Below, one piece after another: positions 890 to 5,785 of a stretch of DNA of 5,785 nt. Made by a program: the position numbers and the translations under genes. The DNA lies in contig CALBUD010000063.1 in NCBI GenBank assembly GCA_937968065.1, positions 1 through 5,785 of the forward strand, in the 5' to 3' direction. The stretch is from Candidatus Iainarchaeum sp. (GTDB lineage: Archaea > Iainarchaeota > Iainarchaeia > Iainarchaeales > CSSED10-239). The notes below the pieces were generated by a model. It saw only the letters and a program-made list of their open reading frames with translations, did not search any database and was not told where the DNA came from. Each line of letters opens with the position of its first letter. Position 1 is the stretch's first letter.

Positions 890-1621
890 ATGGATATTTT
901 ATATGTGCCTTTAATTGTTTTTACTTTAATTATTTTATTATATGTAACTTATCAAGATATAAAATATAGAGAGATAAATGTTATCTCTTTGTTAATTTTA
1001 GCGGTTGTAAGTGTTGTTTATCTTGGAATTTTTATTTTTAAAAATAATTCTTTTTTATGGTATAATTATGTTTTACAATTAATTATAACTTTTTTGTTTT
1101 TATTTATATTTTATCTTTTAGGAAAATTAAGTAATCTTACATATATTGGAGAAGGAGATTTATATATAATTCTAGGAATCTCTTTTACCAATATTTTTGA
1201 TATTTATTTTTCTATGTTTATTTTTATTTCTGCTTTGTTTTTAAATTTGTTAATACCAATAGGTATCTTTTTATTTAATCTTTTATCTAAAAATTATCCA
1301 AAACATTCTTTTTTAAAATCGATTTATTTGATGTTTTTAGGATATCCTCTAAAGTTAAATAAGATAACTAACTTTTATACTCCTTTAGAGAAATATGTTT
1401 TAGAAGAAGGTATTTTAAAATATAAAACAACTATTAAACCAAATATTGAACCTGAAAAAGAATTAAAATTACTTAAATCTTTTGCAAAAAAAAATAACAT
1501 CTCCCAAATTTGGGTTTCTCCTTTAGTTCCTTTTGCAATACTTATCTTTTTAGGTTATGTTCTGGTTATTTCTCTTTATCTTTTAGATATTATTAATTAT
1601 TTGTTAAGTTTCTTCATATAA
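890..1621 (+). CDS. Archaeal-type A24 family aspartic peptidase (prepilin/preflagellin peptidase, FlaK/PibD/EppA-like)
   Basis: 243-aa polytopic membrane protein. The first catalytic Asp sits right after TM1 in YQDIKYREI (D23, codon 956-958; cf. 'D.K.R.IP'). The second Asp sits in a GxGD motif, IGEGDLY (D90, codon 1157-1159). There is no N-terminal methyltransferase or Cys-rich domain as in bacterial PilD. A soluble insert followed by IWVSPLVPF resembles the archaeal A24 C-terminal domain. It lies directly upstream of FlaI-like and FlaJ-like genes. Confidence 0.85.
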   Translation: MDILYVPLIVFTLIILLYVTYQDIKYREINVISLLILAVVSVVYLGIFIFKNNSFLWYNYVLQLIITFLFLFIFYLLGKLSNLTYIGEGDLYIILGISFTNIFDIYFSMFIFISALFLNLLIPIGIFLFNLLSKNYPKHSFLKSIYLMFLGYPLKLNKITNFYTPLEKYVLEEGILKYKTTIKPNIEPEKELKLLKSFAKKNNISQIWVSPLVPFAILIFLGYVLVISLYLLDIINYLLSFFI

Positions 1622-1651
1622 ATCTTGTTTGTATATATATAAAGATTTATA
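1617..1651. repeat. 10-bp perfect inverted repeat (TATAAATCTT / AAGATTTATA) with a 15-nt (TA)-rich loop, overlapping the peptidase stop codon
   Basis: Read directly: 1617-1626 tataaatctt and 1642-1651 aagatttata are reverse complements. The loop at 1627-1641 is gtttgtatatatata. It could be a weak all-AT-but-one stem terminator or a protein-binding site. Function is unknown. Confidence 0.4.
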
Positions 1652-1706
1652 AATATAATGAACTATATCTATATAGATTAAAATATATTTTACAAATAAG
1701 ATATTT
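1652..1706 (+). promoter_or_regulatory. Putative archaeal promoter region for the 977-aa gene (TATA-like elements, 12-bp palindrome, no Shine-Dalgarno)
   Basis: This lies in the only sizeable intergenic gap (85 nt). It holds a perfect palindrome ATCTATATAGAT at 1667-1678. A TATA-like TTAAAATA at 1678-1685 is centred ~26 nt upstream of the ATG at 1707, the spacing expected for a leaderless archaeal mRNA. No GGAGG-like motif precedes the ATG. TATA-like strings are common by chance in sequence this AT-rich. Confidence 0.3.
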
Positions 1707-4640
1707 ATGGGTAATAAAGAAGATTCTTTAGAATTTAAAGTAATTAAAAGAATTCCTTTATCTACAGGTGTATCTTCTAAAACAACTTCTAAAAATATTG
1801 ATTCTCTTAATATTAAAAGATTAGATTCTATAGATATTAAAGAAACTAATATTAAAGAAACTAATCTTAAAAAAACAACTCCAGATTTTAAACAAAATTT
1901 AAAAGACATAAGAGATATTACTTTTAAAAAAGTTTCAAAATTAGATGATGTTGAAAATAATTTAAAAGAAGAAGTTCCATTTAAAATAAAAAAAGGTTCT
2001 TTAGAATTAAATAATTTTAAAAAAGAACCAAATGTTTTGAAAAATAAATCTTTAGAAGAAAATAAATCTTTAGAAAAAGTATCTTCTTTTACTCTTGATG
2101 ATATCAAACAAAATAAAATTAAACCTAAAGAAAAAAAAAAAACTATAAAAAAAATTGAAGTTATTGATAATTTAATAAGTCACGATGCTTCTTTAAAAAA
2201 CCAAGAAACTTCATATCCTTTACATTTTAGTAATGAAATTTATAAGGAAGGACGTATAATTAATTCTTTAGAAAATATTTTAAAAAATATTGATAATCCT
2301 TTTACTATAAAAGAACTTTCAAAAAAAGAAGAATTTATAGATCAATTTAATCAAGAACAAAATAATGTAGATACTCTTTTATTAGAATTAAATAAAAAAA
2401 CAAATAAACTAGATGAAGATGTTTTTTTAGAATCTTTTTCTTTTCTTGATAATAAACCAAAAATTGAAAAAATAAAATACCCTTCATATAATGTAAAACA
2501 TCTTTATTCAAAGATAGATAGCTTAAATAAAGAAATAATTTCTGAAAATAAAGAAAAAATAAATGAAAAAGAAAAGCAAGTTTTTAAAAAAGATGATTTT
2601 AATAATTCTTTAATTGAAGAAATTGAAATTCCTGATGTTTATCCTCTTGAAGATAATGTTGAAGATGTTAATCATATTATTGAAAATAGATATGTAAAAG
2701 ATTCTTTAGAGGATTTAGAAGATACTAAGATATTAAATCAAGATTTGAACGAAATTCCAAAAATAAAAACTAATGAAAGTTCTTCAAAAATACCTAATTT
2801 TGTTTTAGAAAATAAAAAAATTAAATTAAATAAAGATATTGAAGAAAATATTAATAGAACACAAAAACCATTAAATAAAAATAATAACCCTTCAGAAAAA
2901 TTTAATATTAATAAATTTTCTGATAAAATAAAAGAAGATGATGACCATACAAAAGATATTTATTCTAAAATAAATGTAAATAAAGAAGATGATCAAAAAA
3001 TAGAAACTAAGTATAAAGAATTAAAAGATCCTTTAAATATTAGAAAACAAAAGAAAATAAAAAAAGAATATATTGTTATTAAAGAAAAACCAAAAGTTAA
3101 AAAAGATTTAATTTCTGAAAAATATTCTGATTTTAAAGAAAAAGGAATTGATTATATTCTTCCAAGAGATGTTGGTAAAGAAAAAATAAAAAAACAACAA
3201 ATATATATAGAATCAAAACCTGAAAAAGACTCTAATTTTTCTTCACTTGTATATACTGATCCACTCTATGTTTCAAATAAAGAAGTTTCTCAAATTTTTG
3301 AAAAATATTCAATTGATGAATTTACATATGTTACTATTTATTATGATTCTGAAAAAGGTTTGTTATATAACTTAGTTCAACCAGAAATTCCTTTAGATGA
3401 AGAAAAAGAATATTCTCAAATTAAAAAAATATTTTTTAATACTATAGATCAAAACTATTATTCTTTTAATGGAGATAAAAAAAGTCTTGAAAAATATATT
3501 GAAAAAATATATGATATTTCTCTAAATAAATTATCTTATTCTTTAAATAATCTTCAAAAAAAACTTTATTTTAAATTTATTCAAAGAGATTTTTTTGGAC
3601 TTGGAATTTTAACTAATCTTTTGCAAGATAAAAAAATATTAGAAATAACTTGTTCTGGAGAAAAATCAAGTATTTTAGTAAACCACATAGAATATGGAAA
3701 TTTAAAAACAAACATTAGTTTTTCAAGTATTAGAGAACTAAATAATTTTGTAGAAATATTAACTAAAAATATGGGCCTTTTTATAACTGAATCTCACCCT
3801 GTAATAGATGGTTATCTTCCAAATGGATATAAAGTTGAAGGACTTTATTCTTCAGGAGATACCAGTAGTAAAGGATCCTCATTTGTTATTAAAAAATATT
3901 TAGATGAACCTCAATCTCCAGTATCTTTAATTAAAACAAGTATTGGTTCTATTGATTTATTTACATATATATGGTCTGCAATTTCAGAAGACTATAAAGT
4001 AATTATTGTTGGTCTTGATGACTCTTTTACAATATTTAATTCTATTTTATTATTTTATCCAAATAAAAAAATAATAACTGTTCAATCATATGATCGTTTA
4101 AAACTTCCACAACAAGAGTGGATTAATAGAGTTTTTACGAATAATCCAGATATTGATAAAAAGTTAATAATAAATCAAACAATTTCACAAAAACCAGATT
4201 ATTTTATAGTTGATCAATTTCAAGAAGATATTTTTGATGTTTCTTGGCATAATATAAATATGTTTTCAATATCTCCAATAGTCTATAATGAAGTTTTAGA
4301 AAAATTAAAACAAATAAATCAAAAAACTATTGTTATAGAGTTAAGAAATATAAAACAAGAAATTAAAGAAAATATTCAAATAATATCAATTAAAGAAATT
4401 ATTTCAAATCACGAAATTTTAATTTCAGAAATTGATATTAATAAGAAAGTTTATTCAATTAATCTTTTATCTTCAAACATAAACATTGTTGATTTCTTAA
4501 AACGAAAAAAATTATTAAGATGGATGTTTGATTCTAAGATATATAATTATATAGATTTTAATAATATTGTTTCTGAGTTTTATTTTCAAAAAGACAATAT
4601 TTTTAAAAGATTAAACATTGATATAGATGAGGATAAATAA
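1707..4640 (+). CDS. FlaI/ArlI-PilB-like (GspE/VirB11 superfamily, T2SSE) secretion NTPase homolog with degenerate nucleotide-binding motifs and a ~500-aa low-complexity N-terminal extension
   Basis: 977-aa ORF. From ~aa 520 it is colinear with archaeal FlaI-type ATPases: FTYVTIYYDSEKGLLYNLVQPEI (cf. 'v.I..d.....Y.v.EP.l'), QRDFFGLGILTNLLQDKKILEITCSG (cf. 'rd.vGyG.i..lm.D..iEDIsc.G'), VNHIEYGNLKTNISF, PVIDGYLPNGYKVEG...KGSSFVIKKY (cf. 'PivDa.LpdGsRi......GssFtIRKF') and a C-terminal LKRKKLLRWM block. The Walker A, Asp-box, Walker B and His-box positions are substituted (see findings). Confidence 0.85.
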   Translation: MGNKEDSLEFKVIKRIPLSTGVSSKTTSKNIDSLNIKRLDSIDIKETNIKETNLKKTTPDFKQNLKDIRDITFKKVSKLDDVENNLKEEVPFKIKKGSLELNNFKKEPNVLKNKSLEENKSLEKVSSFTLDDIKQNKIKPKEKKKTIKKIEVIDNLISHDASLKNQETSYPLHFSNEIYKEGRIINSLENILKNIDNPFTIKELSKKEEFIDQFNQEQNNVDTLLLELNKKTNKLDEDVFLESFSFLDNKPKIEKIKYPSYNVKHLYSKIDSLNKEIISENKEKINEKEKQVFKKDDFNNSLIEEIEIPDVYPLEDNVEDVNHIIENRYVKDSLEDLEDTKILNQDLNEIPKIKTNESSSKIPNFVLENKKIKLNKDIEENINRTQKPLNKNNNPSEKFNINKFSDKIKEDDDHTKDIYSKINVNKEDDQKIETKYKELKDPLNIRKQKKIKKEYIVIKEKPKVKKDLISEKYSDFKEKGIDYILPRDVGKEKIKKQQIYIESKPEKDSNFSSLVYTDPLYVSNKEVSQIFEKYSIDEFTYVTIYYDSEKGLLYNLVQPEIPLDEEKEYSQIKKIFFNTIDQNYYSFNGDKKSLEKYIEKIYDISLNKLSYSLNNLQKKLYFKFIQRDFFGLGILTNLLQDKKILEITCSGEKSSILVNHIEYGNLKTNISFSSIRELNNFVEILTKNMGLFITESHPVIDGYLPNGYKVEGLYSSGDTSSKGSSFVIKKYLDEPQSPVSLIKTSIGSIDLFTYIWSAISEDYKVIIVGLDDSFTIFNSILLFYPNKKIITVQSYDRLKLPQQEWINRVFTNNPDIDKKLIINQTISQKPDYFIVDQFQEDIFDVSWHNINMFSISPIVYNEVLEKLKQINQKTIVIELRNIKQEIKENIQIISIKEIISNHEILISEIDINKKVYSINLLSSNINIVDFLKRKKLLRWMFDSKIYNYIDFNNIVSEFYFQKDNIFKRLNIDIDEDK
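1836..1865 (+). repeat. Perfect 15-bp tandem duplication (attaaagaaactaat x2), in frame, encoding IKETN-IKETN
   Basis: Read directly: 1836-1850 and 1851-1865 are identical. It lies inside the low-complexity N-terminal extension. Confidence 0.9.
2043..2078 (+). repeat. 18-bp-period tandem repeat (aataaatctttagaa + 3 nt, x2), in frame, encoding NKSLEE-NKSLEK
   Basis: Read directly: 2043-2057 equals 2061-2075. The trailing triplets differ (gaa vs aaa). Confidence 0.9.
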
Positions 4641-4678
4641 TTTTTAAATAAAAATAATTTATTAAAAAAGAGGAAAAT
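4641..4678 (+). promoter_or_regulatory. Short intergenic spacer with a Shine-Dalgarno-like AGAGGA and a TATA-like TTTAAATA upstream of the platform gene
   Basis: AGAGGA at 4669-4674 lies 4 nt before the ATG at 4679, so it is a plausible RBS for an internal operon gene. TTTAAATA at 4643-4650 matches the archaeal TATA consensus but may be chance in AT-rich DNA. The two signals imply different transcript architectures and cannot be resolved from sequence. Confidence 0.45.
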
Positions 4679-5521
4679 ATGTTTAGTAAATTTTTAACAA
4701 AAATATCTAGTTATTTTTTTAAAGATCTAATCATAAAATTAAAACCAAATTTAACTGGTTTTGAAAAAGTGTTAAGTTATACAGAAATAAATGAAGATAC
4801 AGTTACATATCTTTCAAACATATTATTTTTATCTTTATTTTCTTTAATCATCATAGAATTTGGTCTAATCTTTTTAATGATAAGATTAAATATCTTATTT
4901 AATCTTTTAAGTTTTTTTATAACTATTGTTATTTCTTTTACATTTTCTTTTATGATTTTCTTGCTATTATATAAATATCCTTATTATCTACTAGATATAA
5001 AAAAGAAAAAGATAGATGAGGAATTTACAAGAAACATAAGACATCTATCTGTTTTAAAAGATGAAAACTTAAGTATACAGGATGTTTTAAACATTTTTAA
5101 AAACTTAGAAAATAATGATCTTTTAAGTAAAGAAGCAAGAAAAATAATCTCTTTAACAAAACAAAACCATAACTTAAGAGATACTTTTAAAGCAATTATT
5201 TCAGAAACTTACTCGGAAGTTGAAAAAAACTTTTTTAGAAAGTTGATAAGTGTTATTGATAAAAAAGAAGATTTAAACCAAGTTGTTTCAGATTTTCTAA
5301 ATTCTTTAGAACAATCAAGAAAAGAGATTAGTGAACAGAAAAAAAGTAGAGTTAACCTTTTATTCTTAATTTCTATATTTTTATTTTTCTTTTTTATAAT
5401 TATTTTAATATTAATTTTTATGACGGTTACAAATTTATCTTTATTAAAAGAAATGTTAATGATTTTTGCAATAGTTTTTTCAATTGTTGAGTTTATATTA
5501 GTATTAATATTATTTAAATGA
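4679..5521 (+). CDS. Single-repeat type II secretion system F-like (FlaJ/TadC/PilC family) polytopic membrane platform protein
   Basis: 280 aa. Predicted topology is two N-proximal TM helices (about LSNILFLSLFSLIIIEFGLIFLMI and LLSFFITIVISFTFSFMIFLLLY), then a ~115-aa charged helical cytoplasmic domain, then two C-terminal TM helices. The helical domain contains LSKEARKII...NLRDTFKAI...YSEVEKNFFRKLISVIDKKEDL, resembling the T2SSF pattern 'l..e...i......l..al.....ps..l..f...l....G.dl'. It sits immediately downstream of the FlaI-like gene, the canonical FlaI-FlaJ order. The call rests on topology plus synteny. Confidence 0.6.
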   Translation: MFSKFLTKISSYFFKDLIIKLKPNLTGFEKVLSYTEINEDTVTYLSNILFLSLFSLIIIEFGLIFLMIRLNILFNLLSFFITIVISFTFSFMIFLLLYKYPYYLLDIKKKKIDEEFTRNIRHLSVLKDENLSIQDVLNIFKNLENNDLLSKEARKIISLTKQNHNLRDTFKAIISETYSEVEKNFFRKLISVIDKKEDLNQVVSDFLNSLEQSRKEISEQKKSRVNLLFLISIFLFFFFIIILILIFMTVTNLSLLKEMLMIFAIVFSIVEFILVLILFK

Positions 5522-5785
5522 GTGTAGAGTATATGAATTTTAAAGATAAAAACGGAACAATTGCTTATTTTGATAAGATAAATGGTGATAGTTTTATTGA
5601 ATTTATTAAAGAAAGGCTTTTATTTTTAAAGGAAATTTTAACTGATGATGGAAGTTTATTTATTCATTTAGATTATAGAATGTCACATTATATAAAAATT
5701 GCTTTAGATGATCTGTTTGGGTTTTCATCATTTAGAAATGAAATAATTTGGAAATATAATTGGGCTAGTACAGTCAAAAAATATT
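5518..5785 (+). CDS. N6/N4 DNA methyltransferase (beta-class, PF01555-like), 3'-partial; apparently lacks the N-terminal (D/S)PP(Y/F) motif
   Basis: The frame is open from ATG 5518 (or ATG 5533) to the window end. An in-frame TAA at 5515-5517 sits just upstream. Translation: MSVEYMNFKDKNGTIAYFDKINGDSFIEFIKERLLFLKEILTDDGSLFIHLDYRMSHYIKIALDDLFGFSSFRNEIIWKY. This matches the MTase block 'y..fm..Rl.e..RvLk.dGsl.iH.D....hy.k..lD.iFG..nF.NEIiW.Y'. ATG 5518 overlaps the upstream TGA (5519-5521) as ATGA. Confidence 0.7.
   Translation, partial: MSVEYMNFKDKNGTIAYFDKINGDSFIEFIKERLLFLKEILTDDGSLFIHLDYRMSHYIKIALDDLFGFSSFRNEIIWKYNWASTVKKY

Follow-up and report, generated by a model that had tools for sequence, protein, structure and literature searches.

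A 5,785-nucleotide (nt) stretch of Candidatus (Ca.) Iainarchaeum sp. DNA (contig CALBUD010000063.1, hereafter the window) is almost certainly the 5' part of a conserved Epd/Tad-like type IV filament (TFF) cluster of the Iainarchaeota (DPANN), and the homologue of the motor ATPases FlaI and GspE2 encoded in it is very probably a pseudo-enzyme. In descent and in mode of action it would go back to machines of the archaeal System 1/Epd type and of the Tad type. An earlier note, made from the letters of the sequence alone, had read three consecutive genes on one strand as processing peptidase, ATPase-family component and membrane platform of an archaeal type IV filament machine. Our analysis confirms the three + strand open reading frames (ORFs; 890-1621, 1707-4640 and 4679-5521) and their assignment to such a machine.

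The catalytic motifs of the 977-amino acid (aa) ATPase homologue, hereafter the pseudo-ATPase, are degenerate throughout. Residues 528-846 match GspE2 (2OAP, E=9e-36) and FlaI (4II7/4IHQ, E~1e-27) in a phmmer search of the PDB. In these alignments the P-loop GETASGKTTT lies opposite GLDDS--FTI, i.e. with a two-residue deletion, no Lys and no GK[ST]. The Asp box IEDT.E lies opposite VQSYDR, and the VGE of Walker B opposite VDQ (VDQFQ), with the catalytic Glu gone; the alignment ends after this motif, and a His box is absent as well. A joint alignment with paralogues extends the finding to the whole family: the four motifs are absent in 14 of 14 family species and present in all 11 intact Iainarchaeota ATPases, whose canonical forms are VEEVRE, IGEIR and TTFH. 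The 'motor' without ATPase motifs described in the earlier note is therefore real, and the circumstance that the note itself had named as fatal to it, motifs that prove intact on proper alignment, is not the case. With all four motifs lost in every member, the pseudo-ATPase cannot hydrolyse ATP in the manner of the ATPase family. In profile searches PF00437 (T2SSE) does not match the 977-aa protein at E<=1, and the NCBIfam profile FlaI reaches 132 bits (cut-off 550), covering only profile positions 23-358 of 527.

The fold of the ATPases is kept nevertheless. An AlphaFold2 (AF2) model of residues 501-977 has a predicted local distance difference test (pLDDT) score of 83 and a predicted template modelling score (pTM) of 0.79, with shallow input alignments (14-16 sequences) as in all AF2 runs. 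In Foldseek the body of the protein superposes on 2OAP (E=4e-31, template modelling score (TM) 0.73) and on FlaI (E~1e-30) over ~500 aligned columns. A superposition of this length implies that the protein has kept its N-terminal domain as well as the RecA-like C-terminal one, including the stretch beyond the reach of the sequence alignment. Because the fold is present and every catalytic feature is gone, we file the protein as a pseudo-enzyme derivative of GspE/PilB/FlaI and not as a member of that family.

The relatives of the pseudo-ATPase form a compact set (19 matches, 43-72% identity). When 1.84 billion representatives are searched exhaustively with HMMER, 18 sequences come out at E<=1e-108, followed by a gap to 1e-45; the P-loop is missing in all 18 of these clade representatives. 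P0155, just under the score gap and 31% identical, possesses the same architecture and is likewise motif-less. At least 90 positions are invariant across the family alignments. The folded domain is under strong purifying selection, with a ratio of nonsynonymous to synonymous substitution rates (dN/dS) of 0.03-0.04 in the body vs 0.39-0.45 in the N-terminal extension, as estimated with a simple counting method (Nei-Gojobori) on AT-rich genes and from unsaturated close pairs (dS 0.06-0.21). In the annotation of the JGI, the family members P0008 and P0010 are listed as ATPase.

The N-terminal extension is rich in K (19%), E (11%) and N (11%), and the full-length AF2 model has pLDDT<50 across nearly all of residues 1-508. 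A few small exceptions to the predicted disorder fall on short motifs that are conserved, such as 'FLESFSFLDNKPK', 'LIEEIEIPD' and 'DYILP.D'. Among relatives the extension ranges from ~300 to ~650 aa and the entire protein from 788 to 1132 aa (788-1116 in the synteny loci, 1132 among the HMMER representatives). Short tandem repeats occur in the extension, such as 'KETNIKETN' in the window and four copies of 'DNLDVKK' in locus L017. According to the genome paper of Ca. Forterrea (PMC5905446), repeats caused errors of assembly within 'a secretion-related ATPase'; this unnamed gene is plausibly the pseudo-ATPase gene described here. L017 is a metagenome contig of 4.7 kb in which a frameshift divides the pseudo-ATPase into two overlapping ORFs (985-3967), preceded by a PAS-like ORF instead of the peptidase. 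Either the sequence contains an error, or the contig is chimeric, or this copy is degraded.

Other archaeal secretion ATPases among the HMMER matches show peculiarities of their own. P0203, P0210 and P0226 carry large inteins within the Walker A P-loop (GKC...HNT). Outside the family, P0181 (GDAGTGRT / VGD / TFD) and P0285 (AGKAKSGKH / ILD) degenerate independently, which indicates that catalysis may have been lost repeatedly in archaeal secretion ATPases.

The peptidase upstream of the pseudo-ATPase matches the Pfam family Arc_PepC_II above its curated threshold (46.6 bits, cut-off 29.9; 5e-12), stays slightly under that of Peptidase_A24 (26.0 bits, cut-off 26.5; 1e-5), and reaches 43 bits (3.7e-11) against NCBIfam FlaK, whose equivalog cut-off is 330. 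By these scores it classifies as a member of the A24B family and not as an orthologue of FlaK. Residues D23 (956-958, 'YQDIKYREI') and D90 (1157-1159, 'IGEGDL') align with the catalytic Asp of FlaK 3S0X, in agreement with the two catalytic Asp of the earlier note, and are invariant in 14 species; D90 lies within a GxGD-type 'GEGD' motif. The peptidase is thus predicted to be catalytically competent. Candidate substrates, with N-termini such as KKA/ISP and KKS/ISA, are encoded in the same cluster of relatives.

Downstream of the pseudo-ATPase, the 280-aa protein T2SSF-a contains one T2SSF domain (PF00482; residues 120-246, 43.5 bits, cut-off 25.2, 3.8e-11) with hydrophobic segments on either side (41-101 and 222-280), so that the single T2SSF repeat claimed beforehand is upheld by a profile search. 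Its match to the NCBIfam profile ArlJ/FlaJ spans positions 12-242 of 555 and thus no more than the first half (42 bits vs a cut-off of 550). Complete orthologues are nearly all 279-287 aa long, mostly exactly 280 aa. Every relative with downstream sequence possesses a second gene, T2SSF-b (371-390 aa), directly 3' of T2SSF-a, with the exceptions of the window itself and of one species that lacks both genes. In the relatives the platform is split over two genes in the manner of TadB/TadC, and such two-gene platforms are known from the archaeal TFF System 1/Epd and from some DPANN loci (bioRxiv 10.64898/2026.04.22.720090). The idea of a 'minimal' machine with an atypical 'half-size platform' is not supported, as relatives add the second T2SSF gene and the split platform is already known.

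In the window, and only there, the position of T2SSF-b is occupied by a methylase ORF, which overlaps the stop codon of T2SSF-a (ATGA, 5518-5521). It matches Pfam N6_N4_Mtase (31.1 bits, cut-off 26.7) from profile position 19 onwards and positions 53-114 of the profile PRK11524, has an in-frame stop directly upstream and lacks a DPPY motif. A homologue is found in none of the related loci. Truncated and without relatives in the other loci, the ORF points to a breakpoint and not to a designed feature of the system; at ~5520 the cluster was probably broken by a rearrangement or an insertion, or else two sequences were joined there in assembly.

The gene order is shared by 12 species representatives and 19 metagenome loci. 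About 30 loci carry the cluster, all of them Iainarchaeota where a taxon is named, and repetition in so many independent loci excludes a chance pattern. According to a genome scan the relatives belong to the DPANN, Iainarchaeota/Diapherotrites; among them are Ca. Iainarchaeum and Ca. Forterrea multitransposorum, the latter with a complete genome of 840 kb. The relatives' order is PHP-like gene (303-333 aa), A24 peptidase (243-252 aa), pseudo-ATPase, T2SSF-a, T2SSF-b and DUF192 (113-121 aa), after which come the housekeeping genes rpL10e/L16, UPF0020 methyltransferase and NDK. In the clade closest to the window, one or two class III pilins (~175 aa) lie next to DUF192 on its downstream side, and large PKD/LamG adhesin-like proteins come after them. 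A mobile-element or viral origin was rejected, as the cluster of the relatives sits among rpL10e/L16, NDK, aminoacyl-tRNA synthetases and NMD3.

Locus L032, which encodes P0155 in a genome of 32% GC, possesses A24 peptidase, pseudo-ATPase and two T2SSF genes (287 and 377 aa) and lacks the PHP-like and DUF192 genes; the conserved core is accordingly a four-gene module. A HicA/HicB toxin-antitoxin pair lies directly downstream of the module in this locus (12460-12877). The most invariant pair consists of peptidase and pseudo-ATPase, which is kept at 31% identity and also where T2SSF genes are absent. The latter applies to one species (L001, L002, L015, L047 and L048), whose cluster (e.g. L001, 8186-12924) comprises PHP-like gene, peptidase, pseudo-ATPase and DUF192; its pseudo-ATPase is still an intact ORF of 833 aa despite the missing T2SSF genes. 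Either the platform genes have moved in this species or the pair of peptidase and pseudo-ATPase acts independently of a platform.

The pilins of the relatives bear archaeal class III signal peptides, with N-termini MKLTNLSKSTNKKA/ISPIISVVLLVLVAAIL and MNRKKS/ISAIISVVLLILVTAVL, of the types KKA/ISPIISVVLL and KKS/ISAIISVVLLILV. The pilin of L003 (14965-15492) scores 21.4 bits against TIGR02537, the archaellin/type IV pilin N-terminal domain (cut-off 20), and its homologues in L005-L007 and L051 begin with the KKS/ISAIISVVLLILV type. The window itself does not contain a credible ORF with a class III signal peptide, in accordance with the earlier note. As a trait of the system the missing pilin is not confirmed: the closest relatives encode class III pilins ~2 kb farther downstream, and the window ends before these genes. 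Pilin-like N-termini are furthermore found on proteins of 389-938 aa (L006, from 10014; L033, 13857-16292; L034, 13842-16658; L039, 13724-16324; L042, from 4923), which are putative adhesins. This agrees with a recent proposal that binding proteins with class III signals functionalise archaeal TFF machineries (10.64898/2026.04.22.720090).

In all Iainarchaeota loci whose upstream sequence is visible, the cluster opens with the gene of the PHP-like protein (e.g. L005, 6719-7630), which often overlaps the start of the peptidase. It is restricted to the lineage, and the copy in the window is homologous to the 303-333-aa proteins upstream of the peptidase in relatives. The protein has neither a Pfam match nor a PDB sequence match; a weak match to the CehA/McbA metallohydrolases (E=0.004) and one distant homologue with PF13263 are the only hints. 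DUF192 (COG1430; e.g. L003, 14516-14866) lies 3' of the platform genes in every Iainarchaeota locus, and the species without T2SSF genes has it as well. Its absence from L032 suggests a mere conserved neighbour; an accessory component is also possible, and in our search we found no literature that ties DUF192 to pili.

Coding sequence on the + strand fills nearly the whole window, which has ~20% GC. The gaps between the three core ORFs are 85 and 38 nt long, and the intergenic total of the window is 135 nt. Rfam and tRNA scans of the window did not yield any match. The features are listed in Table 1.

Table 1. Positions of genes, protein regions and motif remnants in the window
Feature	Position	Strand	Remarks
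PHP-like gene, 3' 291 codons	2..877	+	5'-truncated ORF; first gene of cluster
A24B class III (prepilin/preflagellin-type) signal peptidase, FlaK/PibD-like, 243 aa	890..1621	+	
Pseudo-ATPase N-terminal extension, residues 1-508	1707..3230	+	K/E/N-rich, repeats, predicted disordered
Pseudo-ATPase FlaI/GspE2-like two-domain body, residues 509-977	3231..4640	+	
Walker A / P-loop remnant 'GLDDSFTIF', residues 769-777	4011..4037	+	
Asp box remnant 'IITVQSYDRL', residues 789-798 (canonical I.(E/D)(D/E)..E)	4071..4100	+	
Walker B remnant 'KPDYFIVDQFQED', residues 829-841 (canonical RPD..(I/V)VGE(I/V)R)	4191..4229	+	
T2SSF-a, 280 aa, first half of split TadB/TadC-like platform	4679..5521	+	
5'-truncated N6_N4 DNA methylase ORF, runs off right end	5518..5785	+	outside system

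An intact secretion ATPase occurs in the same lineage. In L013, directly after DUF192 and on the same contig, a 596-aa protein (10080-11870) possesses all motifs, i.e. GNTGSGKTTTLNA (GNTGSGKTT), VEEVRE, IGEIRNKDE and TTFH, and begins with a 2×[4Fe-4S] ferredoxin domain. Downstream of it lie two T2SSF genes that belong to this ATPase, and a VTT/DedA gene (10080-14113 in all). The family of these Fer4-T2SSE ATPases is widespread in Iainarchaeota and other DPANN, in a conserved order of ATPase, T2SSF, T2SSF and VTT (e.g. L018, L028, L052, L055 and L058). A pilus motor that bears an Fe-S domain may be a sign that assembly is under redox control. Fer4-T2SSE systems resemble the cluster in their lineage, their split platform and their ATPase, which belongs to a paralogous family (E~1e-14 between the two proteins of L013). 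They differ in their four intact motifs and in the 2×[4Fe-4S] domain that takes the place of the disordered extension, and their platform proteins are only distantly related to T2SSF-a and T2SSF-b. Further differences are the lack of a peptidase match in 5-8 kb flanks (searched in L052-L054, for the others judged from Pfam lists) and the lack of a class III ORF or pilin in L018-L031 (a narrow screen that did not include L052-L061). Besides L013, matching contig fingerprints suggest same-contig co-occurrence in two further lineages, namely for P0057 and P0332, each on six contigs (longest 63,384 bp; NCBI, JGI and Logan), and for P0049 and P0296, each on one ENA contig of 41,531 bp.

Among the known systems, System 1/Epd of Methanococcus maripaludis (EpdL-type ATPase, EpdA) shares with the cluster the split platform, the dedicated class III peptidase, and pilins together with adhesin-like proteins within the same locus; System 1 has been reported in DPANN (10.64898/2026.04.22.720090). 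Unlike System 1/Epd, the ATPase homologue of the cluster lacks the four motifs and carries a disordered extension of ~300-650 aa, and PHP-like and DUF192 genes are neighbours. The Tad/Flp system (CpaF/TadA, TadB and TadC, TadV/CpaA) likewise possesses a two-gene platform and a short A24 peptidase without methyltransferase domain, and CpaF is among the structural matches of the pseudo-ATPase (8RKD and 9E24, E~1e-18). CpaF, however, is an active bifunctional motor and its counterpart here is dead, and the cluster is archaeal, without a secretin, TadZ or RcpA-type component. The archaellum core is similar insofar as the pseudo-ATPase matches FlaI/GspE2 best, the peptidase FlaK, and T2SSF-a the first half of FlaJ. 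FlaJ differs as a single two-domain protein and FlaI as an active ATPase. Neither archaellins nor FlaF/G/H/X were seen in 10-kb flanks on each side, as judged from Pfam lists and not from a search aimed at them. An archaellum was rejected on the archaellins and Fla accessory genes missing from these Pfam lists and on scores far under the equivalog cut-offs.

FlaH/ArlH, the partner of FlaI, binds ATP, barely hydrolyses it and is essential as scaffold or regulator of a type IV filament motor. It is comparable to the pseudo-ATPase by functional analogy only, as a non-hydrolysing ring component of P-loop fold, since FlaH/ArlH belongs to the KaiC/RecA family and keeps Walker A, whereas the pseudo-ATPase is of GspE/FlaI type and lacks a P-loop.

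As the best overall explanation we lean towards an Epd/Tad-like filament with a dead scaffold and a motor in trans. The peptidase would mature the pilins and the pilin-headed adhesins of the cluster, and T2SSF-a and T2SSF-b would together form the membrane platform. On the cytoplasmic face of the latter, the dead paralogue would serve as a non-catalytic scaffold or adaptor, probably coupling the T2SSF-a/b platform to the peptidase, with the disordered extension as an interaction arm that may recruit or space partners. An intact Fer4-ATPase from the second locus would power extraction and polymerisation of pilins and adhesins in trans, through mixed rings or alternate docking. The scaffold powered in trans, taken as a specific mechanism, is a serious candidate that we nonetheless rate slightly on the doubtful side. 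The product would most likely be an adhesive pilus or an adhesin-display filament for attachment; DPANN archaea are typically host-attached. A bolder version is rather unlikely in our view: the cluster would represent a new class of machine, in which a dead ring of FlaI fold, the cytoplasmic partner reserved for its own split platform and for the class III peptidase, couples pilin processing to assembly, either with power from a redox-sensing Fer4 partner in trans or without ATP. If true, this class would provide a regulated display of adhesins or pili for host-dependent DPANN cells.

The dependence on a canonical ATPase encoded elsewhere, offered as an alternative in the earlier note, has gained the most support, with Fer4-ATPases common in the lineage and one of them on the same contig in L013. 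Several observations weigh against the scaffold with a motor in trans. An intact ATPase in the same genome is shown directly for L013 only, and the intact ATPases P0053, P0031, P0099, P0068 and P0025 lie on records other than those that carry a pseudo-ATPase. The intact ATPase owns a platform pair, and it has no obvious need for, or service to, the platform of the pseudo-ATPase. The species without adjacent T2SSF genes implies that the role of the pseudo-ATPase may not depend on that platform. Nucleotide might still be bound without hydrolysis through non-canonical residues. The class III screen consists of a narrow regular expression plus one profile match, and T2SSF-b, pilins and intact ATPase are known from relatives and not from the genome of the window itself.

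Some of these points would suit a self-contained apparatus that displays proteins independently of ATP, i.e. a static, motor-free membrane complex of peptidase, dead ATPase and split platform that processes and anchors class III adhesins or short pseudopilus stubs and does not extend filaments processively. Peptidase, platform and substrates are all encoded within the cluster, large PKD proteins that begin like pilins among the latter, and never an intact ATPase of its own, as that of L013 belongs to an adjoining separate system and intact ATPases come with their own platform; the proposal that TFF machineries are functionalised by binding proteins with class III signals (10.64898/2026.04.22.720090) points in the same direction. 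We consider such an apparatus improbable, because the 175-aa pilins resemble ordinary filament subunits and a mere plug would hardly explain an intact hexameric ATPase fold at a dN/dS of 0.04. To our knowledge, moreover, all characterised type IV filament systems require an ATPase for the extraction of pilins from the membrane. Somewhat less probable still is a regulatory paralogue, a dead ATPase that brakes or caps the active ATPase or the platform in a dominant-negative manner, or gates the peptidase and so restricts processing and assembly of pilins to certain conditions. The invariance of the peptidase and pseudo-ATPase pair, even without T2SSF genes and at 31% identity, would fit this role. 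So would the extension, since a long disordered region that evolves fast around short conserved motifs is typical of hubs for regulation or interaction; on the other hand, neither Pfam nor NCBIfam detects a sensor or signalling domain, and a co-encoded, co-conserved platform pair distant from that of the active system is better explained by a structural partner.

The literal reading of the earlier note, in which three genes make up a minimal machine that has a half-size platform by design and lacks a pilin of its own, draws on the three genes visible in the 5785-base window and on the absence of T2SSF-b from its expected place. It is very improbable, given that relatives have T2SSF-b, the closest ones also pilins and adhesins after DUF192, and that the truncated methylase at the position of T2SSF-b indicates a breakpoint. 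A decaying relic, i.e. an ordinary pseudogene within a non-functional cluster, might be suspected from the loss of all catalytic motifs, the interrupted cluster of the window and the split gene of L017. For the family it is effectively refuted by intact ORFs of 788-1132 aa in ~30 loci with 90 or more invariant positions, by dN/dS of 0.03-0.04 and a confident AF2 fold, and by a synteny kept down to 31% identity.

Neither the split platform nor the missing pilin is out of the ordinary. New is a 'motor' that is dead throughout a lineage, bears a disordered arm and is closely tied to the peptidase. A conserved motif-less PilB/FlaI paralogue is undescribed in Makarova 2016 (PMC4858521), in the TFF census (10.64898/2026.04.22.720090) and in the literature searched by keyword, which is not proof of absence. 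Annotation pipelines in which each homologue of FlaI/VirB11 is labelled 'ATPase' will predict too many functional motors in these genomes. In all characterised type IV filament systems known to us (pili, archaella, type II secretion system, Tad), the partner of the platform is an active hexameric ATPase. The cluster described here keeps peptidase, platform, pilins and adhesins, yet its ATPase-fold protein has been dead, and still tightly constrained, through the history of a DPANN lineage. If the pseudo-ATPase is a scaffold that recruits the Fe-S motor, rings of secretion ATPases would be usable as non-catalytic adaptors, and two TFF systems would be able to share one motor. We know of no cultured representative of the Iainarchaeota, and for this lineage, in which contact with the host is a central question, the cluster provides a candidate attachment apparatus.

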